Positions 1 through 52,555 of a stretch of DNA of 64,000 nucleotides are shown here, one piece after another; positions within the stretch are counted from its first letter, which is position 1; every line of letters starts with the position of its first letter. Source of the DNA: Alphaproteobacteria bacterium. Its GTDB lineage: Bacteria > Pseudomonadota > Alphaproteobacteria > MPNO01 > UBA830. The stretch spans positions 1,344,001 through 1,408,000 of the forward strand of contig OZ219790.1 of NCBI GenBank assembly GCA_964291215.2, in the 5' to 3' direction. The notes below the pieces were generated by a model. That model saw nothing but the letters and a program-made list of their open reading frames with translations. It did no database searches and was not told the origin of the DNA. The translations under genes and the position numbers were made by a program.

Positions 1-2249
1 CAAGCTCTCCGAGGCCTCGGCTATGCTTTCACGATGCGTCATGGGAGGAGGCCGCCGTGGCGCACCTCCTGCAACGCCCGATGTCGACGATTTCGGATCA
101 ACAGCAAGTGGCTCCATGTCGTGGGACCCTGACGTGCAAGTTCCCGCACCGCAAGCGCGGCCGGGAGGCAAGAGATCGGCCCGTGCTACAAGGGCGTCCT
201 GGGCCTCGTACATGGCAGTGTAGCTACCAGCTGTGCGGCAGCCACCTGCTGCGCGAACTGACCTTTGTCGTCGAGGCTACCGCGCGACTGATGAAGAGCC
301 TGCTCCGCGAGGTCTGCCACAAGGTCAACAAGAGCGCATCCAAAACCCTGAACGACGCCGGGCGCAAGCGCTACCGCACCATCAGGGCGCCAGGGAACTG
401 CCCGACATCCCGACGAAAGGAAAACGTGGACGCAAACGCGCACAACCTGCACGAACGTCTCGTGAAACACGAAAACCTGCGCTTCACAGGCGACCATCGC
501 GGTAGGGAACCGGGTTACCCCCCGCACAGAACCGGACGTGCGCTGTTCGCTCCTCCCCTGACGACAAGGCGCTGGTTTGGCCACGGGCTCAGTGGGCAGC
601 GGTGAGGGTGTCTATGTCCCCGGTGAAGTCCTTTTGGGAGCGTCGCCGAAGGGCACGCAGCTGTTTGCATTGGTGTATGAACTTCTGCAGGCTGCTTCCT
701 GGAACGGCGTAGTAGCAGCCGTTGATAACTCACCACTTGGCCGTTTCGTGCCGGTTATCGTGCCACCGCCTGCGCAAGGCCTCCTTGATCCGCCGCAGGG
801 TGCCCGTTTGCGACCGACCCTGAACCTGCCTTTCCTCGTCTGTTCGCAGAAGTGCGTCATGCCGAGGAAGTCGAACGTCTTGTCCACGCTTCCGGCGGTT
901 CGCTCTGGCAAACCGACCGAACTCGATGATTTTCCGGGTGCAGTTCAAGTGGGCCAGTCTCTCCCCAAGGTCTCAGCGCCGCCCAGATGCTGAAAGCCGC
1001 ACACGAAGTCGTCCGCATAATGATCGTGTCGCCTCCAGCCATCCGCTTGCGCCAGTGGTTCTGGAACCAGTCGTACGTAGTGCAGGTTCGCAAGGCATGG
1101 CGCCGCCCCTTGCGGTGTTCCCTTGCCAGTCGGTCCCTTCCATGACGCCGGCGTCACTTGATGATCAGACCCCCCGATCCGTTTCCCGAGCATCGCAACC
1201 AGATGGTCGCGGTTGTCGAAGGGGCGTCAACGATCCAGTTGACCTTCCGCCGTTCCACCGTGACGGCGCATGATGCGCCCCGGCCGGAAGCCGTAACTAA
1301 ACCCGAGGAACTCCGTCTCGCGGCACCAGAATCACACCGCCCGCTGAAGAATCTTGTCCTCCAGCGAGGCAAGTTGCCCTCCATCCTCCTTGGGTATGTA
1401 AACCCTGGAGGCGCCCGGTACGCACCCCTGTGCACACGGGCGTGCAGGCAGTTCCACACCCTCCGCGTACGCTTGCCACACAACGCCCCGCCGCCGCGTC
1501 CTTCCTCAAGGAATGGAACGCATCGTGCAGAACGTCGACCGTCACGTGGTGGAGTAAAGACGCTCTTCCGGGTTCCTCTTCGCTACCTGCGTTCAGCCGC
1601 CTGTGACCCCCGCTTCTGCGCGCGGCGCGGGCCAACCGCATTGCCCTTCCCTCCAACAACTCCGCAGGCTCCGAAGAACCCTTGTTCGCCGCCTTCAGCG
1701 GTACTATGGCCGAATCTGACTTCTCGTTCATCATCGGCTTACGGAATTTCCTCTGCGGCCCCTCCACGACAGAGGGGCAAGACCTCCCAGGTCCCTGCCT
1801 CGGCCATGGTTCTCGGACCCCGCGGAGCCCCCCTCACCAACGCGGCTCGTTGCCTTCGGCCACGACCTCGGCACTCCGGTTTCAAAGCATCTCGTGGCTC
1901 AATAGCCTGCCGCTCCCCAACGCTTCGCCTCACGACGCATGGTTCACGGAGAAATTAGCCTCTCTCGGGACTTGCACCCGGCCACATTCCACCAGTTTGC
2001 CTGGCGCACCCGACGTCAGCTTCACCAACAATGCCGGAGAACAGAAGATCAGGATGGCAAAGCTCAAGGTGTCCGGATGCTTCCGCTCCACGCAAAAGCT
2101 TGGTGCCGGGGCTCAAGCTACCTCACCTCCATGGCCGCACTCGGCTACAATCATCACGTCGCAACCCAGATCGCCCTCGACGGAAAAGCCGCAGACATCA
2201 TCAACGAGCACTACGACCAATCAGAACCCAACTAGGGGTGAGTAGATAC
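1..2249 (+). mobile_element. Decayed IS66-family element (3' part, runs off the window start), interrupted by a group II intron
   Basis: Frameshifted IS66 transposase motifs (QLCGSHLLRELTF, AHNLHERL, FTNNAGEQKIRMAKLKVSGCFRS). Right terminal repeat ggggtgagtagatac ends at 2249. Near-identical to 45850-49710. Confidence 0.9.
496..2009 (-). mobile_element. Group II intron (probably bacterial class E) with decayed reverse transcriptase, antisense within the IS66 transposase
   Basis: Minus strand starts GTGCGCCAGG at 2009 and ends with domain V/VI-like gcacgtccggttctgtgcggggg...ccctaccgcgat at 496. RT remnants: MMNEKSDSAIVPLKAANKG, HYADDFVCGFQ, TFDFLGMTHFC. Removing it rejoins gacc|ccgacgtc with no duplication. 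Confidence 0.9.
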
Positions 2250-2254
2250 GTTTT

Positions 2255-4155
2255 GTGCATGCTGCGGGGATGCAGATTGGTCTTCGTCATTTCGATTCGC
2301 TTGCCTGGTGCGCTGCGCTCCGACGACCCGTCACGGTCTGGCCCGCGAGCTGTGCGAGCGCACCGGTTGGCAGAATTCCTGCGGCCGGCCTGTCGGCGGC
2401 GGCGTTGCCGACGCTGGCGAAGCGCTCAGGTCTTGAGCTTCCGCTGCCGTGCGACATCCGAGCGCCGGCCCCGCCGTCCCGGCCGAAGAGGTTCCCGACA
2501 CCAGGGCAGCCTGCCCGCTGGAGGATCTCGGCCCGACCTCGCCCGGACGCCGATGATCGTCGGCTCCGGGAAGCGATGATGGCGATGCACCATCCGCCGG
2601 GATGGGCGGGCAGGTGCGCTATTGGATCCGCCGCTGCGGCGGGATCGGATCCGCGACCTGGCAGCTGCGGGCGCGGGACGAGTGGATGGTCCGCCGACGC
2701 CCGCGCCGCCAACATCAGGTGCGTGATCTGCAATCATCGGTTTCTTCCCGGCGTCCGGGTCCACGGCCTCTGCGCATGGCCGCGCAGCGGGCAGCCGACG
2801 ACCGGGAAGCTCGCGGTGCGCCCGGCGGCGGCCTGCACCCATGTCCGCCCGGAGCAGCTACTGCTATCATTGCGCCGGCCGTTGCCGGGCGAGGCCGGCA
2901 CGGTGCGGGTCCTGGCTGGCGGAAGAGGCAGGACGCAGCGGCGCCCGGTCGGCGCGCTGGCGGGCGCCTGTGACGGCACCGATGCGGACTGGGCGGAGCG
3001 GGAGTATGGGCGCACGCGCTGCAGCGACGGGCGGCGGCGCATCATTGACATGGGCGAAGAACATGGGGGAGGATCTGCCGGTCATCTTTCCGGAGAAGGC
3101 GGAGCAGAAGGCCGCCTGCCGGTTGCTGTCGAACCCGAGGATATCCATGTTCTGGAATCGCATTTCGAGGCGACCGCTGCCGGACGGAGCCTTTCATCCT
3201 TGCAGAACACGACGGCGATCAACTGCACCGGACTGACGGCGGGCCTGGAGAGGATCGGCGGCAAGGGCAGCGCCGGCATCCTTGCCGGGTTGGCAGTGAC
3301 GCCGGAGGGCCGGCCTCCGGGCCTGTTCGCGGCGGCCTTCCGGAAAGAGCCCGGGGAAGACAGCCGGCGCGGGCGGGGGAGCTCGCGGCGGCCTGCCCGG
3401 ATGTGCGTGTGGCTGCGACCGCGACTTGCTCGCCTGCGCCGTGAAGGACGGAAACGCATTGCTGGTGCGCGCGAGCCGCGAAACAGTGTGTGCGAACGGG
3501 CGGCAAAGAGTGCCTTTGGAAGCATGTCGCGGCCCGCCCGCGGTCACGGAACTGACAATCCCGGCCGCCCGCGTGCGCGCAAGGAACGCATCGCCCGCCT
3601 CGAGATCCGCACGGCGGAAGTCGAGGTGACGCCGCCGGAACCGCGGTGCGGAGCCGCTGCCCATGTTTGCCGTCTCGGCGACCGACGGCGACCCCTGGCT
3701 GCTTCTGACGACCGAGCGGCCGGCCGACGCCGTGCACGCCGCGACCGGCTGGTGAGATGGAGCATCGAGACATGGTGCTGAAAACCGGGACCCGGATCAA
3801 GGACCGCCGGCTCGACAACGCCGCCGACCTTCGCAAGTGCCTCGCCTTCGACGCGGTCACCGCCGTCCATGTCCTGACCGTCCTCGTTCGCCCCGAGACC
3901 CCGGCGACCAAAGTGTTTCAGGAAGAGGACCTCGACCTTCTCTCCACGCTGCTCGAGGCGCAGGGGCACCGGAACGTCGTGCGGTCGGGCACGGCACGAC
4001 ATCAGGGCGGCAGTCATCGACATCGGGCGCCTTGTCGGCTTTCATCCCTCGCTGAGGCAGCCGCTCCCGGGAACGAAAAAGGTCTGGCAGGGTCTTGAGC
4101 GGCTGCACTGGGCCATCCAGGTCCGAGACGCTATCGGCGAGAAAAAGCGGGAATA
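2255..4155 (+). pseudogene. Decayed DUF4338 (DruA-like) domain fused to an IS4/Tn5-type transposase
   Basis: Fragments across frames: GGQVRYWIR, ATWQLRARDEW, ANIRCVICNHRFLPGVRVHGL (DUF4338-like), then DWAEREYG, EQKAACRLLSNPRIS, QNTTAIN, LAVTPEGRP, RWSIETW, LKTGTRIKDRRLD (IS4 transposase). Confidence 0.8.
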
Positions 4156-4169
4156 GGATTGCCTATACA

Positions 4170-4462
4170 AGTGCGGGACGTTGAAAGACTACGGTCCCCC
4201 GCACTGCAGCTGCTTGCGGGTCAGTTCGGCGAACTATCGCTCGACCTGGTTGATCCAGGACGCAGAGGTTGGTGTGAAGTGGACGTGCCAGTGCGTCCGC
4301 CGCGCCAGCCAGGCTTTGACCGTCGCGGTCTTGTGGGTGGCGTAGTTGTCCATGACGATGTGGATATCCAGCCCCTCGGGGACGGAGCGGTCGATCTCCT
4401 TGAGAAACTCCCTGGCCCGGTGGCGCCGGTAGCACATGCCGATCACCGAGCCCGTGACGATA
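4170..4462 (-). pseudogene. IS630-family transposase C-terminal fragment
   Basis: YRRHRAREFLKEID...IHIVMDNYATHK...HFTPTSASWINQVER motifs. Confidence 0.85.
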
Positions 4463-4506
4463 TTGTAACGTCGCGCTGTAGTTGTTCTCCATCGGAGGCG
4501 GCATAG

Positions 4507-4746
4507 ATGGCCACTGATAACTACAATTTCGTGGGTGATCCGGAACCGAACCGATGGCGCGTTTTTGCGAGCGTGTGTGGTTGGATCGTGGCCCCGTGGT
4601 TTATGATCCTACTGTGGTTTATTGGCGGCCCTGAACTTCGAAAGAATGTAGCTGATGGTTTCCGAGTGGTGGTGGGGTTGTTGGCCTTATTGTTCGTTGT
4701 TGCGGTCATAGCGGCCCCGGGAAGTGCCGTTTTCAGCGCGCCGTGA
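4507..4746 (+). CDS. Small two-TM hypothetical membrane protein (79 aa)
   Basis: ATG preceded by ggagg, two hydrophobic segments, lower GC than its neighbours. Confidence 0.5.
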   Translation: MATDNYNFVGDPEPNRWRVFASVCGWIVAPWFMILLWFIGGPELRKNVADGFRVVVGLLALLFVVAVIAAPGSAVFSAP

Positions 4747-4892
4747 GGCGATGGACCGGCCGAAGCCCGGTCAGCCCGTACGGTCGAGAAACGCGCGCGG
4801 CGACCATATCTCGACCGGCCCGTAGCGCGGTTCCGTGAAGTCCCGCTCTCACTCCCGTATGCGCCGCAGTGAGATTCGAACTTGCCTGCATG

Positions 4893-5203
4893 ATCGGGAT
4901 AGGGTGGAGCCTCACGGCTCCACCCCTCCCACACCACCGTGCATACGGGTCCGTACACAGCGGTTCGACGGATTTAAGCTGCGGCACGGCATCGCAGGGT
5001 GGCGAGGTCGAGCCTGTCGAAGAAGGCATTGGGTAGCGCGTATGCGAGCGCGGGGCTGTTGCTGAGCCGCCATGGGCCGTGGGCACTGCCGGCGGTTTTC
5101 GCCGCTAGGTCCTTGCCCACACCGAGACGGCGTAGCGCCGCAAAGCGGGTCCGCCCGCGCTTCCACTGCATCCAGACGATGGCGCGGAGCCGCCGTCTGA
5201 CCC
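4893..5203 (-). mobile_element. 3' remnant of a class C (IIC) group II intron: maturase C-terminus plus domains V/VI
   Basis: VRRRLRAIVWMQWKRGRTRFAALRRLGV...HGPWRLSNSPAL, followed by gaaccgctgtgtacggacccgtatgcacggtggtgtgggaggggtggagccgtgaggctccaccctatcccgat. Truncated by IS256. Confidence 0.85.
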
Positions 5204-5690
5204 GATTACGCAACCTGATGTCTGGAAATTGTCGTGAAGCTGATCGAGCTGTTTCCATTTGATGTATGCCTTGGTTTCGGTTTCCCATTTTTCCTCGACG
5301 AGGACTGCGGTTGAGAGACGCTCCAACGAGGCGAGGTTCGGAAAGACCCTGACTTTGGCGGTGCGCCGCTTGAGTTCTTGCTGGATCGGTCGCTCGATGC
5401 CGTTCAAGGTTCGCATACGCTTGTGGTGAGCATCGGGCAAGGTGAAGACAGCGAGCCCCGCATTGTTTTCCAGCCAGGAAGCCTGGATGCTTGTCGCGAT
5501 AGCTGGCCACGAGGGCGCCCGGTTCAGCCTCGGCGAACTGGAGTGAGGAGGCGTGGCTCCGAGCTGTTTTCCAATACGTTTCCTGATGTCGTTGTTCGGT
5601 GCACGGCGTTTTGTGCCAGGTGGAACTGGCAGCGCTGCCACATCGCCGCGCCTAGCACCGCGCCGCTTTCAGCCCGGCATCCGAGACGAT
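5204..5690 (-). mobile_element. IS256-family remnant (transposase C-terminus and right end)
   Basis: WQRCQFHLAQNA, RMRTLNGIERPIQQELKRRTAKVRVFPN. End sequence tttccagacatcaggttgcgtaatc. Confidence 0.85.
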
Positions 5691-5756
5691 GAAGGTCGTA
5701 CCATGCAGGGCTAGCCCGAAGTTCCAGAAAATTCCGGCTGAAATGCACGTCAAGTC

Positions 5757-7430: not shown

Positions 7431-8081
7431 CGGGGCTTCTATTTCGGATCAAAGGCGACGAACGGTCTGTGCCAGATGCTTCTGGGCCTCCAGCCCCCGC
7501 ATTGTGCTTATGTCGAAACGCACTTGGGAGGCGGGGCTCTGATGAAGCGCAAGGCCGCTGCGGCGCGCAGCATCGGGATCGACCGCGACCGGCGTGTGCT
7601 TGACGGGTTCGAGTGCAGCTACCCTGTGGAGCTTGTTCACGGCTGCGCCCACGCGTTTCTGGCCGGCTTCCCGTTCCAGGGCGCGGACCTGGTCTACAGC
7701 GACCCATCTGCGCGCGACCCGCCGATCGCGACGGCGGTACCGCCACGACTACACCGAGGCCGACCATGTCGCTCTCCTCGACCTGCTCAAGGTCCTGCCG
7801 TGCCAGGTGATGGTCTCGGGACACCCCTCGGCGCTGTATGACGACATGCTGCGGGACTGGCGCCGGATCGCGCTTCAGGTGACGACCCGGGGCCAGGTCC
7901 GCACCGAGATGGTCTGGTTCAACTTCGCGCCCGACCGGATGCACTGGGCCGGCCATGCCGGGCGGGACAGGACCGACCGCCAGCGCATCAAGCGCAAGGC
8001 CGCCCGCTGGGCTACAAGAAGATGCCGCCGGGCGAGCGCCTCGCGGTGGTCTCTGCGATCATGGCGGCGGAGGCGGAGTGA
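7431..8081 (+). pseudogene. Dam/D12-class DNA adenine methyltransferase, frameshifted
   Basis: YFGSK, YVETHLGGGALM (SAM-binding motif I), LVYSDP (the expected DPPY is cut by a small deletion near 7705), HDYTEADHVALL, VMVSG, RTEMVWFNF. Stop overlaps the transposase start (TGATG). Confidence 0.85.
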
Positions 8082-9507
8082 TGCCAACGGTGAACGGGGC
8101 ATCGCTGCGCGCGGAACTCGATGACGCGAAGGCCCGGATCACCACGCTGCGCGCGGACGGCAAGGTGTCCGAAGAGGTCGACGCCGTGATCGGGGTCCTG
8201 CTGCCGGGCATCCTGGTGGCGGTGTTCCTCGAGAAGGCCACGCCGAAGACCTCGCGCAACTCCGGCCTCCCGCCGTCGCAGACCGCGCGGCGCGCCGGCA
8301 AAGGCTCCCGCGGCAAGGGACCGAAGGCGAGGGAGACGGCATCGGGCAACCTGCGCACGGTCACCGTCATCGGGTCCAGCCCGGTCACCGAGTGCCGGCA
8401 ATGCGGCCATGACCTGTCCGCAACCGTGTGCGCCGGACACGAGGAGCGTGTCGAGATCGACATCGTCTTCGAGACCGTCGAGCGCCGGGTCGAGGCCGAG
8501 ATCAAGGACTGCCCGCGCTGCCGCGCCCGGAACAAGGGCGCGTTCCCCGACACCATGCCGGGGCCGCTCCAGTATGGACCCGGCATCGTTGCCTGTGCCG
8601 TGCACCTGCTCTGCGCGCAGATGGTCCCGTTCAAGCGCACCGCAGCCATGATCCGGGCGATGACCGGACGGCTGCTCTCCGAGGCCACGCTTCTCGGCTT
8701 CGTCTCGCGCCTGCATCAGGCGCTGGAACCATGGGAGGCCGCCACGACCGGGAAACTCCTCGCCATGCCCGTGCTGAACGTCGACGAAACCTCGCTGCGG
8801 GTGGACGGAAAGAACCACTGGATCCACGTCTGCTCCGGCGGACCGGTCACCGTCAAGCGGCTGCACCGCAAGCGCGGATGCGAGGCCATCGACGACATCG
8901 GCATCATCCCACGCTACCCAGGCGTCATCGTCCACGACTGCTGGAACTCACCTACGCACACTGCAAGCATCAGCTGTGCGGCGCCCATCTGTTGCGCGAG
9001 CTTCAGGCCGTGACCGACAGCAACGGCTGGCCGTGGGCGCAGAGAATGCGCAGGCTTATCGCGCGCCGGCAGGTCATGCGGCGGCCGGACAGGCGCCTCT
9101 CCATGCGCCAGTACAGGCGAATCGCACGATGCTACAGGGAGATCCTGGAGCAGGGCCGAAAGGAAATGCCCGAGATCCCGAAAAGAGAAAAAGGCCGCCG
9201 GGGACCGGTCGCCAAGTCCGATGCCCACAACCTTCTCGAACGCCTCGCCGCCCAGAGACGGAACGTCCTGCGCTTCTCAAGGCGGGCCGACACACCGTTC
9301 TTCAACAATCGCGCTGAACGAGACTTCCGGATGGCCAAGGTCAAGCAGAAGGTCTCCGGCTGCTTCCGAACCATCGCCTGCGCAAACGCCTGGTGCCGCA
9401 TATCAAGCTACCTCCGGACAATGGCGGCACTCGGATACAACCCGCTCGTCACCATCAACATCGCCCTTCAGGAAAAGGCCGTTGACTGTCTCAATCAACT
9501 CGAATAA
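8081..9507 (+). pseudogene. IS66-family transposase, frameshift near 8945
   Basis: KTSRNSGLPPSQT, CxxC Zn finger, QYGPGI, LNVDETSLRVDG, VHDCW, HQLCGAHLLREL, FNNRAERDFRMAKVKQKVSGCFRT. Confidence 0.92.
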
Positions 9508-10257: not shown

Positions 10258-10815
10258 CTACCGGCCTGCCGGGCGGGTCTCCGGGCCCGAGACGCCGGCG
10301 CCCTCGAAGGTGGCCATGTCCGCATGGCAACGGGCGGCGGCCCTGAGCAGCGCGAGCGCCAGCGCCGCGCCCGACCCTTCGCCGAGGCGCATGCCGAGAT
10401 CGAGCAGCGGCGCCTTGCCCCAGAGCGCCAGCAGCCGCCCGTGCGCCGGCTCGGCGGAGAGGTGGCCGGCCTGGCAGGGGTCGAGGCCGGAGGGGTCGAG
10501 CGCGTGGAGCACGGCCGTCGCCGCCGCCGCGCCGTAGTCGTCGAGCAGCACCGGCACGCGGCCCATGCGGGCGGCCACGAGCGCGCCGAACATGGCGGCG
10601 GTCTCGAAGCCGCCGAGGCGGCGCAGCACCTCCAGCGGCGGCCGGCCGCCATGCCGGGCGGTGCCGAGCCGCACCGTTTCGACCTTGGCTTCGAGCCGCG
10701 CACCGGAAACCCCCGTTCCGGGCCCGGTCCAGTCCTCCGCCCTGCCCCCGTGCAGCGCGTGCGCAATGGCGGCGGCCGAGGTCGTGTTGGCGATACCCAT
10801 CTCGCCGAATCCCAC
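10258..10815 (-). pseudogene. cobT: Nicotinate-nucleotide--dimethylbenzimidazole phosphoribosyltransferase, C-terminal half only
   Basis: [38 protein letters not shown]. The N-terminal half is replaced by IS66 sequence. Confidence 0.9.
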
Positions 10816-11294
10816 GCTACCCAGGCGTCATCGTCCACGACTGCTGGAACTCACCTACGCACACTGCAAGCATCAGCTGTGCGGCGCCCATCTGTTGCGC
10901 GAGCTTCAGGCCGTGACCGACAGCAACGGCTGGCCGTGGGCGCAGAGAATGCGCAGGCTTATCGCGCGCCGGCAGGTCATGCGGCGGCCGGACAGGCGCC
11001 TCTCCATGCGCCAGTACAGGCGAATCGCACGATGCTACAGGGAGATCCTGGAGCAGGGCCGAAAGGAAATGCCCGAGATCCCGAAAAGAGAAAAAGGCCG
11101 CCGGGGACCGGTCGCCAAGTCCGATGCCCACAACCTTCTCGAACGCCTCGCCGCCCAGAGACGGAACGTCCTGCGCTTCTCAAGGCGGGCCGACACACCG
11201 TTCTTCAACAATCGCGCTGAACGAGACTTCCGGATGGCCAAGGTCAAGCAGAAGGTCTCCGGCTGCTTCCGAACCATCGCCTGCGCAAACGCCT
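10809..11294 (+). repeat. 486-bp direct duplicate of IS66 transposase segment 8906-9391
   Basis: Appears identical by eye (offset 1903), including the same frameshift. Confidence 0.9.
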
Positions 11295-11701
11295 AGTGTC
11301 TTGTCATTCGTCAAATGTCGAATAAAGGCGTTTGAGTTTCACGCGGGCATCGTCGGTGGTGAACTGCCAATCCACCTTGGCCTGGATGCGGTCGCCTGCC
11401 AGGCGGCGACTTCCCGGCGTAACACCTCGATGCAGTCGATGCGGCGGTTCAGGCGGATCATGACGTTGAGTTCCACCACGTTCAGCCAACTGCCGTGCTT
11501 GGGGGTGTAGACGAACTCGAAGCGGTCCCACAGGGCCTTGGCCTCGTCCGGCGGGTAGGCCTCGTAGAGGGCGCCGGGGAGTGTTGAGATTGTCCATCAC
11601 CAGGGTGATGGTGGTGGCATCTTGGTAGCGCCCGGCGATGTCGGCCAGGAACTGCGCCCAATCGATCTTGCGCTCGGTTACCTTGGTCATGCGCTTGCCG
11701 G
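11293..11701 (-). mobile_element. IS630-family element, right-end fragment
   Basis: LVMDNLNT, YTPKHGSWLN, WQFTTDDARVKLKRLY. End ctagtgtcttgtca. Inverted copy of about 12400-12805. Confidence 0.88.
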
Positions 11702-12805
11702 CTAGTGTTATGTCAGCAATGATATGTCGTACATTTGGTGCTAGACTGTCCGTCCATTCGGGATGGAGGTCGGAGTATGAAACGCTACGTGGTGACCCTG
11801 GACGAACGGGCAGAACTTTCGGAGATCAAGGGCTCGCACCTGTCGCAAAAGGTAATCAACGCCCTGCTTAACTGCGACGAGAGCGCGTTCAATGAATGCC
11901 AGATGACCGGGAAGGTCATTGCTGAGATTCTGCGCATCAGCATGCGCAAAGTAGACCGAGTAAAGAAGCGTTTCGAGGGGCTGGAGGCGGCATTGGGTGG
12001 CCGGCGCCGTCCTACCTATATGCGAAAAGCCGACGGCGTCTTCGAGGCGCGTGGCCCTGAGTTGTGGTGAACCGCCTGAGGGTTACGCGCAATGGTCGTT
12101 GCGGCTGCTGGCCGACCGCGTTGTCGAGCTTGGTTACACCGTGTCACACGAGACGGTGCGGCGTGTTCTAAAAAAAACTGCCTCAAGCCATGGCAGCGGG
12201 TGGGTGATTCCTCCTCAAGGGAACGCCGACTTCGCCGCAGCGAAGGTGCTCGATCGCCGCCCCGCCGCCTTCCCCGTGGTCTGCATGGACGAAACGCCCC
12301 GACCGGCGAGACACGGCAACCGATCGCCATGGCGCCGGGACGGGCGTAACGACTACGAGTATCGACGTTGCGGTACCTGCAACGTCTTCACGGAACCCCT
12401 GGCCGGCAAGCGCATGACCAAGGTAACCGAGCGCAAGATCGATTGGGCGCAGTTCCTGGCCGACATCGCCGGGCGCTACCAGGACGCCACCACCATCACC
12501 CTGGTGATGGACAACCTCAACACTCCCCGGCGCCTTCTATGAGGCCTACCCGCCGGACGAGGCCTTGTGGGACCGCTTCGAGTTCGTCTACACTCCCAAG
12601 CACGGCAGTTGGCTGAACGTGGTCGAACTCAACGTCATGATCCGCCTGAACCGCCGCATCGACTGCATCGAGGTGCTACGCCGGGAAGTTGCCGCCTGGC
12701 AGGCGACCGCATCCAGGCCAAGGTGGATTGGCAGTTCACCACCGACGATGCCCGCGTGAAACTCAAACGCCTTTATCCGACATTTGACGAATGACAAGAC
12801 ACTAG
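11702..12805 (+). mobile_element. IS630-family element, full span but decayed
   Basis: Ends ctagtgttatgtca and tgacaagacactag with CTAG targets. WSLRLLADRVVEL, SHETVRRVLKK with an A9 run, VVCMDE, DYEYRRCGT, MDNLNT. Confidence 0.9.
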
Positions 12806-13277
12806 TGCGGTATCCGACCGTAATGAAGCGCGGCGGCGGCAGCGCCCGTCCCGCGCCGCCGCGTTGCGGCCGGGGGTCCGTGCGCCGTGTTGTGAAATGT
12901 CCGATTTCGTCCGACGAGGGGGCGTTGTAGGCAGATCTGGAGGTCTATTCGGGAGCGGATTTCGTTGTCGATATGCCGGTTCCGACCTTGAGACGGTGCC
13001 ACCAACTTCAAGAACGGCCACTCTGACACGGTTGTCCGCCGCCAACCGCGACAACAGAATGGTCCTGGGGGTGGCGCCAGCCCGGAACGAGCCGCGATGA
13101 TGGCCGCCGGGGTGCCCGATCCGGCGCCGGATGCATGCTCCGGGCGCTTGTGCAGGCACCGGGATGGTGGCAGGGTTCTTAGGTGCCGCGGTGCCGCCGG
13201 TCCAGCCCGGTCCCGGAGCATCGGCTCCGGCGGCAGTGCCAGACCGCCGAACCACCACCGTCAGGAGGACCGAGACC

Positions 13278-26827: not shown

Positions 26828-27970
26828 CTAGACGCCGAGGACGCGGTTGCGCTGGGCGACATAGGCCTGGTCGGAAATCTTCGACCAGCCGCCCAGATCC
26901 TTGCGTGCAGCCAGGAAGCTCTCGTGTATGGTCTTGGCGAGCGCGCTGTGGGAGACCACGGTTTCGAAGACCTCGGCCGCAGCCTCTCCGAAACTGTCAT
27001 AGACATCGTCGTTGAACTTGCGCAGCTTGACGCCGTGCTCGCTCAGGAGCTTGGCCAGCGCGGCACCGTTCTTGGCATTGTACTCAGCCATCATGACGTC
27101 GTTTTCCATGCCGGCGGCGGCCTCAATCAGAATCTGGTCGGACTTTGTCAGCTTGCCCCACCACGATGCGTTCATGCCCAGCGAGAGCATCGCGCCCGGC
27201 TCGTGCATGCCCGGATAGTAGTAGAACTTCGCCGCCTCGTAGAACTTCATGAAGCTGTCGTTCCACGGGCCGACCCACTCGGTGGCGTCGATCGCGCCCG
27301 ACACCAGGTTCTCGTAGATCTGGCCGCCGGGAAGCGACACCGGCGAGGCGCCGAGCTTGGCCATGACGTCGCCACCGAGGCCCGGAATGCGCATCTTGAG
27401 CCCCTTGAGGTCGTCCGAGGAGTTGATTTCCTTGTTGAACCAGCCGCCCATCTGGACGCCCGTATTGCCGCACATCACGGCCTTGAGGCCGAAGTCACCG
27501 GCCAGCTTGTCCCACAACTCCTGTCCGCCACCGAAGCGGATCCAGGCGTTGATCTCGGTGTAGGTCAGGCCGAAAGGCACCGACGTGAAGTACGCCCAGC
27601 CGGGATGCTTGCCCTTCCAGTAGTAGTCAGCGGCGTGATAGGCTTGCGCGTTGCCGGACGCGACCTCGTCGAACGAATCGAACGCGCCGACCCGCTCACC
27701 GGCCGCGAAGTACTGGACCTTGATGCGGCCTTCGGTCATGTCCTCGACGCGCTTGGCAAAGCGCTGGGCGCCTGTGCCAAGGCCGGGAAAGTCACGCGGC
27801 CAAGTCGTAACGATCGCCATTTCGGTGCGCTTCTGGGCAACCGCAGGCGCAGAGATCGCAGCAGTTGCCCCTGCCCCGGCAAGCGCCGCACCCTTAATAA
27901 AGGACCGCCGTCCCGCGGTCTTGGCGCCCCCCCCCTTTTCCGTGATCTGCTTGTTGTCGTTGGTCATCAC
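26828..27970 (-). CDS. TRAP substrate-binding protein (DctP/TakP type) with Tat signal
   Basis: RRSFIK twin-arginine motif, YYWKGK, GNTGVQMGGWF, LKMRIPGLGG. Confidence 0.93.
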   Translation of the reverse strand: MMTNDNKQITEKGGGAKTAGRRSFIKGAALAGAGATAAISAPAVAQKRTEMAIVTTWPRDFPGLGTGAQRFAKRVEDMTEGRIKVQYFAAGERVGAFDSFDEVASGNAQAYHAADYYWKGKHPGWAYFTSVPFGLTYTEINAWIRFGGGQELWDKLAGDFGLKAVMCGNTGVQMGGWFNKEINSSDDLKGLKMRIPGLGGDVMAKLGASPVSLPGGQIYENLVSGAIDATEWVGPWNDSFMKFYEAAKFYYYPGMHEPGAMLSLGMNASWWGKLTKSDQILIEAAAGMENDVMMAEYNAKNGAALAKLLSEHGVKLRKFNDDVYDSFGEAAAEVFETVVSHSALAKTIHESFLAARKDLGGWSKISDQAYVAQRNRVLGV

Positions 27971-28382
27971 TTACCATCCTCCATCTCTTGAAGCGGCGCC
28001 CGGCGAAACCACTCGACCATCCAAGATTTCAGCATTCAGATTATCATGTCCGGCCACCACGATTGCCGCCGTTTATACCACAGCCCGAATTCCGACAAAA
28101 CGTCTGGTAAAGAGCATGCCCACGGCTCCGAAACGCGCCGCTCCGGCAGGGTTCCGGCGCTCCTTGGTTGCACCCGCCTGCGGAGAGCCTGCGGCGCGGA
28201 TTTTGCCGCTGCTCTTCAATTCGGTACCGGCCGATGGTATCGTCGGATTTCTTGCCCCTGCTTGAACATGGTGGTGCGTCGTCGGCATTGGATGAGGCTG
28301 GCGGGCATTCTCGTGGCATCCACCCTGGCGCGCCGATCCATGGCCGGCAACCGGCCTCCTTCCAGATCCGCCGAAACCCGCA

Positions 28383-31920: not shown

Positions 31921-31929
31921 GTACGGCTC

Positions 31930-33602: not shown

Positions 33603-33606
33603 CGTC

Positions 33607-34724: not shown

Positions 34725-34947
34725 ATGCAATACTGCATGCCGGAGACCTGACCCGCGATCGCCGGACGTTCTACCAGCGGAGCGCGCCGCGCAGCATTAG
34801 GCTGTCTTCGGGAGCCGGCCCTGCCGGTGTGCGCCCTCGAGGCCGAGCACCGTCCAGAAACCGCTTCCGCCGGTGCCTCGCGAGTGCGGGGAACAGCCGA
34901 CTGTACGCTACGAGCAAGCGACCGACAGCGGGTACCCGGAAAACCCG

Positions 34948-39105: not shown

Positions 39106-39141
39106 CGTCCCCCGCGCCTCCGGCCGACGCCGGATCTGGCG

Positions 39142-42643: not shown

Positions 42644-42933
42644 GGGGCGTCTCCGCCGCCATCGTCCGGCGGCACCTCGCCCATCAGGTAGACCGAAATG
42701 ATCTCGTGGGTCACCGTGTGGCGCTCGACATTGAACCAGCGCCCGCAGCCGTGGCTATGGCACCACCGTTCGCGGTGCCGGCCTCTGGGATTGGCGCGCA
42801 TGAACAGGTAGTCGGCCCACTGCGCGTCGTCGAGAGCATCCGGGTCGGCCGGCCGCCGGATGTGGGCTTCGCCGCCACACGTGAACTCGCTCTCGTCGCG
42901 CTCGCCGCACCAGGGGCAGGAAATCAGGAGCAT
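42640..42933 (-). CDS. soxD: Sarcosine oxidase delta subunit
   Basis: CPWCGERDESEF, ERWCHSHGCGRWFN. Confidence 0.95.
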   Translation of the reverse strand: MLLISCPWCGERDESEFTCGGEAHIRRPADPDALDDAQWADYLFMRANPRGRHRERWCHSHGCGRWFNVERHTVTHEIISVYLMGEVPPDDGGGDAP

Positions 42934-44928: not shown

Positions 44929-46338
44929 CCGCCGCCTGGAAAATCGCCCCGCGCGACACCTTCATCGGATGGACACCCGAGCAGCGTCAGAAGAACCTGC
45001 CGCGTAACTGCTCACCCCCTGGTTCCGGCATGATGTCGGGGTAGAGCAACGAACGGGTTTTCGTGGAAATTTGACACCCGATTCGTTTAGTGGTGGTCAT
45101 CGAGAACGACGGGGACCGCCAGTGGGCTACTTTGGATCGAAGGCGACGAGCGGGCTGTGCCAGCTGCTTCCGGGGCTCCGCATGATCTGTATGTGGAAAC
45201 GCATCTCGGAGGCGGCGCGCTGATGAAGCGCAAGGCGGAGTACCGGAAGATGCCGCCGGGCGAGCGCCAGGCGATGCTCGCAACGATCATGACCGTCGAG
45301 GCCGGGTGATGGCGATGGTCAACGCGGCGTCGCTGCGCGAGGAGTTCGAAGCGACCCGGATCGCAGCGCTGCGTGCGGCCGGCAAGGTGTCGGAAGAGGC
45401 CGTGATCCGGGTCCTCCTGCTCGACATCCTCATCGTCGTCCTTCTGGAGAAGACCACGCACGAGCCGGAACTCCGGCCTGCCGCCGTCACAGACGGACAA
45501 GAGCGCGAGGCGTGCCGGGAGCAACGGCAAGGGCCCGAAGCCGAACCGGCAGATGGGCGACAACCTGCGCAAGACCATCGTCGAGGAAACGGTCGCGGCC
45601 TGCGACGCCTGCGGCGCTGACATCGACGGCCCCGTCGATCGGGAGCGCCGCGTCCTCTACGACATCGTGTTCGAGGTCGTCGAGCGCCGCGTCGAGATCA
45701 AGGAATGCCCGAAGTGCAAGGCCCGGGGCCGGTTCCCCGACAACATCCCGTGCAGTACGGCATCGGCATCCAGGCCCTCGTCATCAACCTGCTGGTCGCC
45801 CAGATGCTGTCCCTGCGCCGTCGCGCTCGTGCAGGCGATCTCCGGCATCAAGCTCTCCGAGGCCTCGGCTATGCTTTCACGATGCGTCATGGGAGGAGGC
45901 CGCCGTGGCGCACCTCCTGCAACGCCCGATGTCGACGATTTCGGATCAACAGTAAGTGGCTCCATGTCGTGGGACCCTGACGTGCAAGTTCCCGCACCGC
46001 AAGCGCGGCCGGGAGGCAAGAGATCGGCATCATCCCGTGTTACAAGGGCGTCCTGGGCCTCGTACATGGGCCAGTGTAGCCACCAGCGGCAGCCACCTGC
46101 TGCGCGAACTGACCTTTGTCGCCGAGGCTGCCGCTGGGCGCGACTGATGAAGAGCCTGCTCCCTGCCACAAGGTCAACAAGAGCGCATCCAAAACCCTGA
46201 ACGACGCCGGGCGCTACCGCACCATCAGGGCGCCAGGGAACTGCCCGACATCCCGCCGCCGCCGAAAGGAAAACGTGGACGCAAACGCGCACAACCTGCG
46301 TCTCGTGAAACACGAAAACCTGCGCTTCATAGACGACC

Positions 46339-47863
46339 ATCGCGGTAGGGAACCGGGTTACCCCCCGCACAGAACCGGACGTGCGCTGTTCGCTCCTCCC
46401 CTGACGACAAGGCGCTGGTTTGGCCACGGGCTCAGTGGGCAGCGGTGAGGGTGTCTATGTCCCCGGTGAAGTCCTTTTGGGAGCGTCGCCGAAGGGCACG
46501 CAGCTGTTTGCATTGGTGTATGAACTTCTGCAGGCTGCTTCCTGGAACGGCGTAGTAGCAGCCGTTGATAACTCACCACTTGGCCGTTTCGTGCCGGTTA
46601 TCGTGCCACCGCCTGCGCAAGGCCTCCTTGATCCGCCGCAGGGTGCCCGTTTGCGACCGACCCTGAACCTGCCTTTCCTCGTCTGTTCGCAGAAGTGCGT
46701 CATGCCGAGAAAATCGAACGTCTTGTCCACGCTTCCGGCGGTTCGCTCTGGCAAACCGACCGAACTCGATGATTTTCCGGGTGCAGTTCAAGTGGGCTAG
46801 TCTCTCCCCAAGGTCTCAGCGCCGCCCAGATGCTGAAAGCCGCACACGAAGTCGTCCGCATAATGATCGTGTCCCGCTTGCGCCAGTGGTTCTGGAACCA
46901 GTCGCACGTAGTGCAGGTTCGCAAGGCGCCGCCCCTTGCGGTGTTCCCTTGCCAGTCGGTCCCTTCCATGACGCCGGCGTCACTTGATGATCAGACCCCC
47001 CCGGAGCATCGCAACCAGATGGTCGCGGTTGTCGAAGAACCCACGGGCGTCAACGATCCAGTTGACCTTCCGCCGTTCCACCGTGACGGCGCATGATGCG
47101 CCCCGGCCGGAACCGAGGAACTCCGTTTCGCGGCACCAGAATCACACCGCCCGCTGAAGAATCTTGTCCGAGGCAAGCGGTCGTTGCCCTCCATCCTCCT
47201 TGGGTATGTAAACCCCGGAGGCGCCCGGTACGCACCCCTGTGCACACGGGCGTGCAGCAGTTCCACACCCTCCGCATACGCTTGCCACACAACGCCCCGC
47301 CGCCGCGTCCTTCCTCAAGGAATGGAACGCATCGTGCAGAGCGTCGACCGTCACGTGGTGGAGTAAAGACGCTCTTCCGGGTTCCTCTTCGCTACCTGCG
47401 TTCAGCCGCCTGTGACCCCCGCTTCTGCGCGCGGCGCGGGCCAACCGCATTGGCCTTCCCTCCAGCAACTCCGCAGGCTCCGACGAACCCTTGTTCGCCG
47501 CCTTCAACGGTACTATGGCCGAATCTGACTTCTCGTTCATCATCGGTTTACGGATTAGTTCCTTTCCTCTGCGGCCCCTCCACGACAGAGGGGCAAGACC
47601 TCCCAGGTCCCTGCTTCGGCCATGGTTCTCGGACCCCGCGGAGCCCCCGTTCGCCTCACCAACGCGGCTCGTTGCCTTCGGCCACGACCTCGGCACTCCG
47701 GTTTCAAAGCATCTCGTGGCTCAATAGCCTGGCCTGCCGCTCCCCAACGCTTCGCCTGGCGCCTCACGACGCCCGACGCATGGTTCACGGAGAAAGTGGT
47801 GGTTAGCCTCTCTTCCTGCCGGGACTTGCACCCGGCCACATTCCACCAGTTTGCCTGGCGCAC
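46339..47863 (-). mobile_element. Second copy of the group II intron, same insertion site in the IS66 transposase
   Basis: GTGCGCC start at 47863, ccctaccgcgat end at 46339. Near-identical to 496-2009. Confidence 0.9.
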
Positions 47864-47898
47864 CCGATGTCAGCTTCACCAACAATGCCGGAGAACAG

Positions 47899-49504
47899 GT
47901 ATCTACTCACCCCTTGTTGGGTTCTGATTCATAGTGCTCGTTGATGATGTCTGCGGCTTTTCCGTCGAGGGCGATCTGGGTGGCGACGAGTGGGTTGTAG
48001 CCGAGTGCGGCCATGGAGGTGAGGTAGCTTGAGCTCCGGCACCATGCTTTTGCGTGGAGCGGAAGCATCCGGACACCTTGAGCTTGACCTTTGCCATCCT
48101 GATCTTCTGTTCTCCGGCATTGTTGGTGAAGCTGACGTTGGGGTCGTCTGTGAAGCGCAGGACTGACTTTTCGTGTTTCACAAGACGTTCGTGCAGGTTG
48201 TGCGCGTCGGACTTGCGTCCACGTTTTCCTTTCGTCGGGATGTCGGGCAGTTCCCTGGCGCCCTGATGGTGCGGTAGCGCTTGCGCACGGCCCGGCGTCG
48301 TTCAGGGTCTTGGATGCGCTCTTGTTGACCTTGTGGCAGACCTCGCGGAGCAGGCTCTTCATCAGCCGCGCCCAGCGGTAGCCTCGACGACAAAGGTCAG
48401 TTCGCGCAGCAGGTGGCTACCGCACAGCTGGTGGCTACACTGGCCCATGTACGAGGCCCAGCAGTCAGGACGCCCTTGTAGCACGGGATGATGCCGATCT
48501 CTTGCCTCCCGGCCGCGCTTGCGGTGCGGGAACTTGCACGTCAGGGTCCCACGACATGAAGCCACTTACTGTTGATCCGAAATCCGGTCTCGTCGACATC
48601 GGGCGTTGCAGGAGGTGCGCCACGGCGGCCTCCTCCCATGACACGAGCGCATCGTGAAAGCATAGCTGAGGCCTCGGAGAGCTTGATGCCGGAGATCGCC
48701 TGCACGAACGCGACGGCACGGCGCAGGGACAGCATTTGGGCAACCAGCAGGTTGATGACGAGGGCCTGAATGCCGATGCCGTACTGCACGGGATGTTGTC
48801 GGGGAACCGGCCCTTGGTCCGGGCCTTGCACTTCGGGCATTCCTTGATCTCGGCGCGGCGCTCGACGACCTCGAACACGATGTCGTAGAGGACGCGGCGC
48901 TCCCGATCGACGGGGTCGACGCCGTCGATGTCGGCGCCGCAGGCGTCGCAGGCCGCGACCGTTTCCTCGACGATGGTCTTGCGCAGGTTGTCGCCCATCT
49001 GCCGGTTCGGCTTCGGGCCCTTGCCGTTGCTTCCGGCACGCTCTCGTCCTTGTCCGTCTGTGACGGCGGCAGACCGGAGTTCCGGCTCGTTTTGCGCGTG
49101 GTCTTCTCCAGAAGGACGACGATGATGATGTCGAGCAGGATGACGAGGACGCGGATGACGGCCTCTTCCGCCACCTTGCCGGCCGCACGCAGCGCCGCGA
49201 TCCGGGTCTTGGCCGCTTCGAACTCCTCGCGCGCCGCGTTGACCGTCGCCATCACCCGGCCTTGCGCTTCATCAGCGCGCCGCCTCCGAGATGCGTTTCC
49301 ACATACAGATCATGCGGAGGCTGGAGCCCCGGAAGCAGCTGGCACAGCCCGCTCGTCGCCTTCGATCCAAAGTAGCCCACTGGCGGTCCCCGTCGTTCTC
49401 GATGACCACCACTAAGCGAATCGGCATGCAGTGTCAAATCTCCACGAAAACCCGTTCGCTGCTCTGCCCCGACATCAAGCGGGAATCAGGGGGTGAGCAG
49501 TTAC
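47899..49504 (-). mobile_element. Intron-free sister IS66 inserted in inverted orientation
   Basis: TIRs at 47899 (gtatctactcacccc) and 49504 (ggggtgagcagttac). 8-bp TSD gagaacag (47891-47898, 49505-49512). Confidence 0.92.
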
Positions 49505-50079
49505 GAGAACAGAAAATCAGGATGGCAAAGGTCAAGGTGTCCGGATGCTTCCGCTCCACGCAAAAGCATGGTGCCAAGCTACCTCACCTCCATGGCCGCA
49601 CTCGGCTACAATCATCACGTCGCAACCCAGATCGCCCTCGACGGAAAAGCCGCAGACATCATCAACGAGCACTACGGCCAATCAGAACCCAACTAGGGGT
49701 GAGTAGATACCCTGCCGCTGGTGGTCGATAACCCGGGATTCCTCATCATGCCCTGGCTTTCCGTCGCGAACCCTGGGTCCCGCATCCTCGCCATCATGCG
49801 ACGCCGACTGCCCGATGACTGGACCAGACGTTACAACATCACCCCGGTCCTCATCGAGACCTTCGTCCAGACACCGCGCTACACCGAAGCCGTCTACAAG
49901 GCCTCAGGATGGATCCGTGTCGGAACCAAGAAAGGACGAGGCCGCTACGCACAAGAAATTCGACAAGCCAAAAAAAGACATCTGGCTGAGGCCTCTGCGC
50001 AAGTACTGGAAATGCATCCTCAACCGGTGAAAATCGCCCGCAATCACCTCGTGACCGAACGCTTACGTGCAGCGGGTGC

Positions 50080-52555
50080 GTAAGCGTTCGTTCGTGCGGT
50101 GATGACGATCTGCGCTGAGGTTTGTTTTGGTGATTCGGAGAAGGGGGCTGGTAAATTTTTTTTGACGGTGCCATCAGGTCGTGCATGGTCATGTGCATCG
50201 AGGATTTCGTGTCATCATCGGGGGCGGACGCCGCTGGCGATGTGCCGCAGTCGTCATATCGTGATTCGGCCACCTGGAAGTCCCTGTACGATCGCGAGCG
50301 TATTCGAGCCAAGGCTGCGGAAGCCCGCACGGCGGTTGCGGATGCCCGCACGAAGGCTGCGGAGGGTCGCTGTGAGGAGCTGCGCTTGCAGGAGGTGGAG
50401 GGGCGCAGCCGCGCGAATTCCCTGAAGGCGATTTTCGAGAGCAATCGCGAGAAGCTGGCAGCTGCCCGTGCGGAGGTCAGGGAAGTTCGGCGGACGGCGA
50501 AGCAGTTTCTTGCGCTGAAGCAGGAGGTTGCACGTCCGGGCAGGCTTCTTGCCGAGGCCGGCGCGCGGAAGCGGTCGACGGTGGTGTCGCTGCGCATGGA
50601 GAATGCCGGCCTGAAGACCGCGATGAGGGTTCTGAAGGGTCGGGGCGCTCGAGGCGGAGAACGACAAGCTTCACAGGTCGTCGATGTACGGGCGCAAGAG
50701 CGAGAAGAGGCAGCGGGCGCCATCGAAGTGCGGCCAGCAGTGCGGCACTCTTGGCCGCGGCCGGCGCTCGAGGAGGTGGAGGAGCGGCTGGAAGTGGCGG
50801 AGGACGCGCGCTCGTGCTGCGGCACGCTGCCAACGGTTTGCACCAGGATCATCGAGATCAGGGCGCACAAGCGGCGGATTGTCCGCCCGCGCCGGGGCTG
50901 TGACTGCCCCGGTTCACCGAGCGAGGTGGCGGCGCGGCTGTTTCCCGGCACCGCATTCGGGTGTGGACGCATGTGCTGCACGAGCGCGTGCATGCGGCCC
51001 TTGCGCCGCGCCGCCCGACCAGGGGCTTTCGCCGGGAACGCCGGCCAGCTCCACGAGCCGGATGCTGCCCCTGTTCGAGCCGCTTCGGGACGCGATCCTC
51101 GCGCACCGGAACGAGGCGAGTCTGCGCCATGCCGATGCATCCGGGCCCTGAGGGAGGTCCGGAAGTCGCGCCGCGCCTGCTCTGGACGTCGGTCAGCCGT
51201 GACGCGGTCCTCTTCCACCCCTCGCGCAGCACCGAGGTCGCGGCGAAGCTGTTCGCGGACGCCGTCGGCCCCATGTATCCGGTCTGCGACCGCTACGGCG
51301 CCTGCAAGAAGCTGGCGCGCCTGTGGCCCTTCATCATCCTGTGCTGTTGCCGGGCGCATTGTCGGCGCGACTTTCCGGACTGCGCCGGCCGCAGCTGGAG
51401 GGGTGGGCGGACGAATGGATCGATCGCGGAGATCTGCCGCCTGAACACGGCTCGACTGCCTTGCTTCCGGCGGCCGGTCGGCGGCGGCGTTCGAGGCCGC
51501 GCAGGCGGCGCCGGAGACTGCGGTCGCCGCGCTGTTTGCGGCAGCGCCAGCTGGAGAGGCTTCCGAAAGCGGCGCCGGAAGGCAGGCCGCTGCGCTCAAC
51601 CATCGCGCAGGCGTGTTCGTCGACCATGGACAACAATTTCGGGGAAAGGGCTGTCAGGGGCCCGGCCAACGGGCGGAAGCCCGGCTTCGGTTCCGACAGC
51701 ATGGACGGCGTGCGGCTGTCATGTACACGGTCCTGTTCACGGTCGCGAGGAGCGGCCTCGACGTTCTGCGCTGGCTTGATGCCTGCGCGGAGAACGGCGG
51801 CCCGGCGATCTGTCGCCCTGGTTGCCGTGGCCCGGAGAGGCGGCGGAGATTCGCGGCGCCGCCGTGAGCGGCGAGGTCGAGTGCCGCTGCCACGGGCGCG
51901 ACTTCATGATCGCGCAGATGCGGCTGCTGCGCGAACTGACGATCACGGAGTGGACCCCATCGCCCGCGCCTTCTGCCGCCGCCGGCCCCGAAGCTGATCA
52001 CGTCGGACACCGAGCCGCCGCCCCGAAGACCCTCAACGAGCTCCGCCCGCTGACACTACCTCGAATACACGCGCCTGGTCGACCCGCAGATGCGCTACGC
52101 GGTCCATGACCGGAACGGCGAGCCGCTGCTCGGCTTCTCGACCGCCGCATGGAGCGCGCACTGCAACACCACGCCCGTGCTTTGCGAGATCTTGGTCGAG
52201 GTCCCGCACCGCGGCGTCTGCCGGCCGCGTCGGAACAACCAGGGGCGCGGCCGCTACGACCGACATGACAGGGTCGACAAGTCGAAGAAGGACATCTGGC
52301 CCGCTCCGCAAGGACTGGAAGCGGACCCTCAATCGCTGAACCCTGCAACCGGCACAGGATGGTGCTCAGCTCCTCCTCCGCAGCGCCGGGACAAAACCGC
52401 AACCAATGCGGAAAACACGGCATGGCGCCAGTGCCTGCCAACCTCACCGCGCATCCCGGTGCACGAAACCGCTCCGGATGACGCTGGAACTCCCTGACAA
52501 AGGCCCGTCAAACGGACGAAAACAACAACACCTCACCCCACGAACGAACGCTTAC
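50080..52555 (+). mobile_element. Decayed IS66-family element: transposase followed by a DUF4338 gene
   Basis: TIRs gtaagcgttcgttcgtgcggtga and tcaccccacgaacgaacgcttac (22/23). YGRKSEK, VCDRYGA, AHCRRDF, DNNFGERAVRGP, then QMRYAVHDRNG...FSTAAW...GRGRYDRH...KKDIW. Confidence 0.85.

Follow-up and report, generated by a model that had tools for sequence, protein, structure and literature searches.

A narrow class of 5-7 bp deletions in the mobile and single-copy DNA of a sponge-associated alphaproteobacterium

The locus analysed here raises the question of why its mobile DNA is riddled with short deletions while the host genes beside it seem to keep full reading frames. The window, a stretch of 64,000 nucleotides (positions 1344001-1408000 of contig C1), lies in a 6.15 Mb genome of two contigs (C1 and C2) and 64% GC, referred to here as G000, and carries mobile DNA at both ends of a middle part that is single-copy by repeat depth (13077-44352). 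The elements in question are copies of an IS66-family insertion sequence (IS), two of which, copies A and B, contain a group II intron (Table 1). The IS is present in about 180-200 copies genome-wide, all of them broken, and the intron in about 60. Repeat matches cover 2.18 of the 6.15 Mb (35%), and 23% is matched ten times or more. The source bacterium is sponge-associated; public runs containing window sequence were sponge or marine metagenomes together with one coded host organism, and the best matches of a host protein were alphaproteobacterial metagenome-assembled genomes. The small word shares of sponge metagenome runs other than X1 give no indication of habitat. G000 was compared with four relatives of the same genus (G001 to G004), all five genomes being used for gene inventories. 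G001 is a draft of 220 contigs, of which 566 kb were examined, and its host DNA is 93-94% identical to G000 and colinear with window positions 13067-44359. G002 is a second species (6.1 Mb) with 68% identity to G000 in one host gene.

Copy A (1-2044) and copy B (45849-47898) align at 91.8% identity across 2121 columns, and the alignment contains 26 mismatches and 22 gap openings that add up to 148 gap bases. A sequence-only reading of the window had proposed that such sister copies differ largely by private deletions, and the cases that it picked out were found as described: copy B has ATCATC near 46029 where copy A lacks it near 180 (31 of 101 copies keep CATCAT), GCGAGGT occurs near 307 but not near 46163 (24 of 101 copies lack it), and a stretch of 22 nt at 1921 faces one of 36 nt at 47748 across two 7-bp gaps. 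Deletions thus do separate the two copies, together with the mismatches, but they are mostly shared rather than private. Among 101 aligned full-length copies of the IS, indels occurred at many sites, most of them common to 2 to more than 40 copies, and only 20 of 96 deletions of at least 5 bp were singletons versus 335 of 632 substitutions.

The indels of the IS family are deletions and not insertions. The extra segments found in some copies are unique sequence and not duplications. An ancestral reconstruction that kept every column present in at least 3 of the 101 copies (1792 bp) matched a 488-aa IS66 transposase of G001 in one frame (residues 69-483, E 1e-103), whereas copy B matched it in fragments only; a 524-aa reference frame had been discarded as an antisense shadow frame in favour of the 488-aa one. 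That re-adding the segments restores a single transposase frame indicates that they are ancestral. Relative to this state, the average IS copy has 30.8 deletions (258 bp in all), 0.3 insertions and 28.4 substitutions, and the distinct events of the family comprise 113 deletions versus 26 insertions. With all sizes counted, the load of dead IS copies is 10-25 deletions per kb. In the window, the left arm of copy A has 15 deletions (5-14 bp) across 611 bp of the reconstruction and that of copy B has 29 across 1526 bp, while the right end of copy A has 2 over 254 bp and showed no gaps in most of its genome matches. The intron, a Mutator-type transposase remnant and the repeat family at 50081-52555 behave like the IS family in their deletions, the average intron copy having 38.1 deletions and 38.5 substitutions.

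The deletions fall into a narrow size class. Among 252 left-normalised, polarised and distinct deletions from these four repeat families, 33 were of 1 bp, 14 of 2-4 bp, 28 of 5 bp, 64 of 6 bp, 50 of 7 bp, 5 of 8 bp, 7 of 9 bp, 31 of 11-14 bp and 7 of 18 bp, so that 142 of the 252 belong to a sharp 5-7 bp class in place of the 2-15 bp range given by the sequence-only reading. The class accounts for 13 of 20 distinct deletions in the Mutator-type family and for 16 of 42 in ten aligned copies of the 50081-52555 family; a further family at 11293-12805 was excluded, having one match only at the 90% coverage filter. By a hand estimate, about 16% of new deletions would merge with an older junction (30 junctions x 7/1300), and such merging would explain the classes of 12-13 and 18 bp.

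The same size class was found outside the repeats. In 354 kb of single-copy DNA aligned between G000 and G001, 76 segments of 5-9 bp were missing from G000 (38 of 6 bp and 18 of 7 bp) versus 12 from G001 (binomial p 1.6e-12), while 1-bp indels numbered 120 versus 93, and 43 segments of 2-4 bp were extra and 43 lacking in G000. Over the same loci, G001 showed a monotonic size spectrum with no peak at 5-7 bp. The process is supported as genome-wide and lineage-specific. The 5-9 bp deletions of G000 are sparsest in confident coding DNA (0.136 per kb), somewhat denser in ambiguous DNA (0.225) and densest, at 1.09 per kb, in single-copy DNA that is non-coding, and they cluster in fast-evolving stretches such as the spacer between the DctP and MFS genes, which holds six. 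In single-copy non-coding DNA, deletions amount to about 0.02-0.04 per substitution, the same order as the 0.06, 0.03 and 0.036 singleton deletions (at least 5 bp) per singleton substitution in three repeat families. The contrast between host genes and mobile DNA is thus a difference in density and not an absence: most open reading frames (ORFs) of the 13077-44352 block, itself 93-94% identical to G001, have full-length Pfam domains, as the claim of intact host genes would have it, but the deletions are present in single-copy DNA as well. Their rise in density from coding to dead DNA supports selection as what keeps them out of genes. An ORF intactness test was set aside; its 'intact' class excludes indels that are not multiples of three by definition and its 'stops 1' rows are probably end effects, and the inference of selection accordingly draws on the density contrast only.

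The sequence-only reading had also allowed for an assembly artefact in the repeats, and an assembly or polishing error of this kind is now hardly credible as the source of the deletions. The independent Logan contig of source run X12 covers window positions 27269-42815 (15,547 nt, depth 46), single-copy DNA that contains such deletions, with 0 differences. Other samples share or vary the same deletions. Runs X13 and X1 have CGCAGC at 27856, which is absent from the window, run X14 lacks six further bases at 27866, and nine and six extra bases are present at 34575 in X13 and at 36372 in X1, these runs differing from the window by substitutions and by such single short indels. The low-copy parts of 2225-4760 were matched exactly by run contigs. 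What speaks for an artefact is that the contigs of public runs are too fragmented in the high-copy repeats for copy-by-copy assignment, so that single junctions there are neither confirmed nor refuted. However, an artefact would not be expected to avoid coding DNA as the deletions do, nor would it explain the same signature in a second genome. Taken together, the deletions are real in independent sequencing runs.

That second genome is G002, in which eight copies of an eroded IS66-type family were aligned. Its 58 distinct deletions comprise 20 of 5 bp, 30 of 6 bp, 3 of 7 bp, one each of 1 and 11 bp and three large ones, while the ranges 2-4 and 8-10 bp are empty. At least two species thus carry the signature, each with a length setting of its own (6-7 bp in G000, 5-6 bp in G002). 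In G002 the dinucleotide AT stood at the start or the end of the deleted segment in 60.4% of 53 events versus 8.2±3.7% by chance, an ATC start or GAT end was found in 32.1% versus 3.6±2.5%, and GC boundaries were depleted. The boundary preference of G000 is weaker, with AT at one segment end in 20.8% of 202 events versus 10.6±2.2% by chance and GC at one end in 46.5% versus 33.2±3.2%. Two of the eight aligned G002 copies, L185 and L193, have 0 deletions although one of them has 327 substitutions, indicating that undeleted and heavily deleted copies coexist in this genome.

A more speculative proposal of the sequence-only reading was that duplicated DNA is inactivated by a repeat-targeted mechanism, resembling repeat-induced point mutation (RIP) or CRISPR self-targeting. 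Repeats making up 35% of the genome, old families that are riddled, and two CRISPR-Cas loci (arrays at C1 574173-581202 with about 97 repeats and C2 2068487-2069557 with about 17, both of 36-nt repeats and each beside cas1) would be in keeping with it. However, the 76 segments missing relative to G001 lie in single-copy DNA, repeats have singleton deletion/substitution ratios like those of non-coding single-copy DNA, and none of 111 spacers has a match in the genome beyond the arrays. Nor is every IS eroded, as had been claimed: other IS66 families of G000 are intact, and one young family of about 12 copies is 99.5-100% identical and almost free of gaps (0-1 per copy, except one copy with 3). 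The same deletions in unique DNA, a clean young family and the lack of a spacer match together indicate that the process acts on all DNA and that repeats are not its target, and we regard repeat targeting as very improbable.

Ordinary replication slippage between short direct repeats, exposed by relaxed selection in a host-restricted symbiont, could leave many deletions as well, and the sequence-only reading had named slippage or microhomology repair as the cause of a deletion bias filtered by selection. The bias and its filtering agree with the genome-wide occurrence and the density gradient, but that cause fits poorly with a sharp ruler and weak microhomology. In the G000 events microhomology averaged 1.84 bp versus 0.87 bp by chance, a roughly twofold enrichment, and 20% of events looked like the loss of a tandem unit versus 8% by chance, so that deletion between direct repeats applies to a minority only; 25-39% of events had no microhomology at all. 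Pseudogene deletions of other symbionts, with microhomology at about 40% of sites and without Ku or LigD, have been reported in terms that would suit slippage (PMC6054270). By contrast, the pseudogene indels published there follow a power law with the shortest sizes dominant, while here events of 2-4 bp are nearly absent, those of 8 bp are tenfold rarer than those of 7 bp, and G001 is monotonic over the same loci. Slippage is thus an improbable explanation. A motif was not found within ±12 nt of the G000 deletion sites, nor a flanking stem or hairpin or a GC bias, and neighbouring sites were not closer to each other than random. Within the deleted segments, mini-hairpins with 2-bp stems were weakly enriched (22.5% versus 12.1±2.8%) and those with 3-bp stems were not.

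An inventory of repair genes, likewise suggested from the window letters, found the core set intact. MutS and MutL are uninterrupted in G000 (frames of 981 and 670 aa), and MutS, MutL, RecA, RecJ, XseA (ExoVII), RNase HI, RNase HII, the Pol I 5'-exonuclease and a single DnaG are uninterrupted in five of the five genomes. These MutS and MutL frames speak against mismatch-repair deficiency. Profile searches found Ku (PF02735) and ATP-dependent ligase (PF01068) in none of the five genomes, which speaks against scars of non-homologous end joining; in G000, NucS and Prim-Pol were not found, and a TnpB search gave no explanation for the deletions. These results bear on the possibility of staggered cutting by a nuclease, topoisomerase or recombinase, with breaks spaced 5-7 bp (or 4 bp with trimming) and loss of the stretch in between on rejoining of the ends, for which the human TOP2A K743N variant provides a model. 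A fixed length with little microhomology and no motif is what a protein ruler would be expected to leave, and tumours with TOP2A K743N are reported to have an excess of 6-8 bp deletions (PMC8795545). However, without Ku and ATP-dependent ligase there is no known end-joining route, G000 has no NucS, and the 2-4 bp duplications of the TOP2A type are missing, as seen from the 43 extra and 43 lacking segments and from the rarity of insertions in repeats. Furthermore, the AT anchor stands at one end only, which favours a polar, ruler-like step over the symmetric double cut of a dimeric enzyme. Staggered breaks are therefore an unlikely origin.

The distribution of deletions among copies points to a contribution of element copying. 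The copies are mosaic, with a pairwise site compatibility of 0.39 between indels and 0.51 between substitutions and only slight dependence on distance, and the presence/absence matrix forms a ladder of deletion load from about 8 to 42 per copy. The five least-deleted IS copies have the most private substitutions (8.4 versus about 2.4-4.1), and the gap-to-mismatch ratio peaks, at 1.06, where repeat pairs are least diverged. Non-autonomous elements that are copied serially and gene conversion between copies are probably both involved. Such a pattern, together with the skewed frequencies of shared deletions, could mean that the deletions arise during copying itself, either as a transposition-coupled error in an active non-autonomous lineage or through conversion that mismatch repair cannot police, loops of 5-7 nt being invisible to it. 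Mobile-DNA density would then reflect element dynamics and not only decay in place, a view compatible with the strand-polar skip considered below. However, single-copy DNA, in which neither transposition nor conversion takes place, has this size class too, and the RNA-copied intron has the same spectrum as the DNA transposons. Copy C, nested in copy B and hence younger, has 18 deletions over 1780 bp (10.1 per kb) compared with about 18 per kb in its older host, the opposite of what a single master lineage losing sequence with time would give. We thus consider an origin in element copying possible but tentative.

The explanation that we hold with modest confidence, slightly better than even, is that the fixed-length 5-7 bp pattern comes from a short strand-polar skip that goes unseen by MutS and is filtered by selection. 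About six template bases would be skipped in one strand-polar step of DNA synthesis, and the resulting loop would be too large for MutS recognition. MutS is reported to bind insertion/deletion loops of up to four nucleotides (PMC8235422), so that it could set the lower size limit by recognising loops of 4 nt or less and leave events of 2-4 bp nearly absent. Fixed length combined with a one-sided AT (or purine-pyrimidine) start would suggest a polar event, for which the loss of a primer-length stretch where Okazaki fragments join is a candidate. Old mobile copies may continue to serve as templates for each other through transposition in trans and gene conversion, and deletions would be dense in these families because the copies are neutral inside.

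Several observations weigh against this explanation. The drop from 50 events of 7 bp to 5 of 8 bp would not follow from escape from mismatch repair alone. The repair genes are uninterrupted in G000 and in all four relatives, with no gene difference that explains the lineage effect, and the comparison with a G001 lacking the peak is limited to the 566 kb of its draft. The ratio of deletions (at least 5 bp) to substitutions rises from 0.03-0.06 in singletons to at least 0.9 in the highest-frequency class, a skew that a uniform in-place process does not predict and that is partly methodological, the reference for scoring being the majority base for substitutions and 'present' for deletions. The primer-length idea draws what little support it has from the ruler and the one-sided AT start, while bacterial DnaG primers are usually quoted at about 10-12 nt. 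A stronger form of the explanation, which we put forward as a conjecture and doubt more than we believe, would be a dedicated polar ruler that removes 5-7 nt from a purine-pyrimidine step (AT in G002), acting genome-wide across a sponge-associated clade of Alphaproteobacteria with a length set by the species, either as Okazaki primer-length loss or as a by-product of a transposon-borne DNA-modifying module. If such a ruler is real, it would be a mutational process not described before in bacteria, by which neutral DNA shrinks in fixed quanta. Matches to transposon-borne DruA/DUF4338-like modules number 41 in G000 and 70 in G002, and 4, 0 and 8 in G001, G003 and G004, counts that may simply track IS load. 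A DruA/DUF4338 domain fragment also lies in the window at 49709-49948 (+), just outside copy B.

Mira, Ochman and Moran reportedly described a deletional bias in bacterial DNA in 2001. For symbiont pseudogenes, power-law indel sizes with an excess of multiples of three have been reported (Danneels et al. 2018, PMC6054270). The deletions described here resemble the bias so reported in that they far outnumber insertions, occupy sites under relaxed selection, show partial microhomology and occur without Ku or LigD. They differ from it in the narrow peak of 5-7 bp in G000 (5-6 bp in G002), with 2-4 and 8-10 bp almost absent, and in the one-sided AT anchor of G002. The tumour signature ID_TOP2A (PMC8795545) is similar in its excess of 6-8 bp deletions outside repeats, its little microhomology and its being credited to one enzyme; as reported there, however, these deletions always come with 2-4 bp duplications and eukaryotic end joining, neither of which is found in this bacterial host.

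RIP of fungi makes C-to-T transitions and needs duplication. It shares with the present case that repeated mobile DNA is riddled and dead while unique genes are intact, but the lesions here are deletions, unique DNA is also affected and young repeats are spared. IS66 elements of the single-ORF type have a DDE_Tnp_IS66 transposase, an 8-bp target-site duplication (TSD) and terminal inverted repeats (TIRs) beginning GTAA. The family analysed here shares the DDE_Tnp_IS66 transposase, the 8-bp TSD and the TIRs, and its 1.8-kb reconstruction has room for the transposase alone, whereas canonical IS66 elements also have accessory tnpA/tnpB genes; weak PF03050 matches were found on many of its copies, including copy C at C1:1392050-1392469. 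Unlike the few and intact IS66 copies of relatives, however, about 200 copies in G000 are broken, each having lost about 258 bp in about 31 deletions. The literature searched, mainly at the level of search results, gave no account of bacterial genomes with deletions of a fixed length. The signature is unusual.

Bacterial indel spectra are treated as smooth power laws, and a narrow 5-7 bp class that can be tuned by species would imply a single molecular step with a ruler, in analogy to the cancer signatures that point to single enzymes. It may give access to an error of replication or repair in a clade of uncultured symbionts, and the one-sided AT anchor of G002 makes the mechanism testable from sequence alone, for instance by strand bias around the replication origin. 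With about 258 bp lost per 1.8-kb IS copy in a genome of 35% repeats, the process drives genome erosion to an extent that can be measured. Elements peppered in this way will escape pseudogene callers and IS annotators, and pairwise identity badly misjudges their age.

Table 1. Coordinates of the elements, host block and defence genes of the window (TIR, terminal inverted repeat; TSD, target-site duplication).
Position	Strand	Feature	Basis or remark
1..495	+	IS66-family copy A, left arm inner part	Copy-number searches; whole visible part 1-2249, start cut by window edge
496..2008	-	Eroded group II intron in copy A	Rfam RF02005 at 1808-1974 (-), 68 bits
2009..2249	+	Copy A right end with right TIR	Few deletions
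5204..5715	-	Mutator/IS256-type transposase remnant, about 100 copies	Pfam Transposase_mut on ORF 5105-5641 (-); repeat depth
13077..44352	.	Single-copy host block, colinear with G001	5-9 bp deletions, mostly intergenic
27860..28328	.	DctP/MFS intergenic spacer, about 470 bp	Six 6-9 bp deletions versus G001, one polymorphic among strains
44996..45003	+	Copy B left 8-bp TSD CCTGCCGC	Read from sequence
45004..46338	+	IS66-family copy B left arm, TIR GTAACTGCTCACCCC at start	Element overall 45004-49710
46339..47862 (end approximate)	-	Group II intron in copy B	Rfam RF02005 at 47624-47828 (-), 110 bits
47899..49504	-	IS66-family copy C, complete, inverted, nested in copy B	TSD GAGAACAG on both sides
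49513..49710	+	Copy B right end with right TIR	Then TSD CCTGCCGC at 49711-49718
50081..52555	.	Eroded repeat family, 25-41 copies	Repeat depth; called an integrase in the sequence-only reading
52590-55760	-	SNF2/ResIII helicase	DISARM-like set
55764-58817	-	DUF1156 + N6_N4 methylase	DISARM-like set
59661-60800	-	AAA_15/AAA_21 ATPase	DISARM-like set
60784-62385	-	GmrSD_N protein	DISARM-like set

As had been read from the letters, TIRs and 8-bp TSDs survive: the TIRs GTAACTGCTCACCCC and GTATCTACTCACCCC are imperfect yet intact, CCTGCCGC flanks copy B, and GAGAACAG flanks copy C at 47891-47898 and 49505-49512. A 62-bp stretch of the IS at 45237-45298 is retained in about 70 of about 190 copies and is the counterpart of the family's single large deletion polymorphism (74 bp). 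The ribozyme domains of the group II intron were recognised by Rfam in both window copies, and the position of insertion into the IS is identical throughout the roughly 60 intron copies. For an intact intron-encoded reverse transcriptase, a search with RVT_1 at E<=1e-10 gave 2 matches genome-wide and none in the window. The long ORFs of the 50081-52555 family had no Pfam match. A 490-bp direct repeat (8906-9395 and 10809-11298) is 99.8% identical and gap-free, a young duplication without deletions, and is hosted by a second, low-copy IS66-type element with a DDE_Tnp_IS66 match at 7955-9013.

Synteny with G001 ends at window position 13067, beside a 46-copy repeat (12898-13067), and the G001 contig continues on C2 of G000 at 2504234, which looks like an IS-mediated rearrangement between two replicons. 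The citrate-synthase ORF at 13131-14042 (+), at the repeat boundary, covers only positions 133-350 of the 357 of its profile and is probably a truncated gene. Within the host block, the TRAP subunit frames DctM (23018-25669, -, 883 aa) and DctQ (25695-26744, -, 349 aa) are unusually long, and the domain match of DctM is split into three stretches. At the other end, the part from 44359 to beyond 64000 (C1 1388359-1414588) is about 26 kb in G000 versus 744 bp at the same site of G001, and this G000-only segment contains the IS cluster and a defence island. The latter includes a DISARM-like gene set at 52590-63952 (-), and 52506-58041 has a second copy at C1 1878401-1883937 that differs from it by 151 mismatches and 3 one-base gaps.

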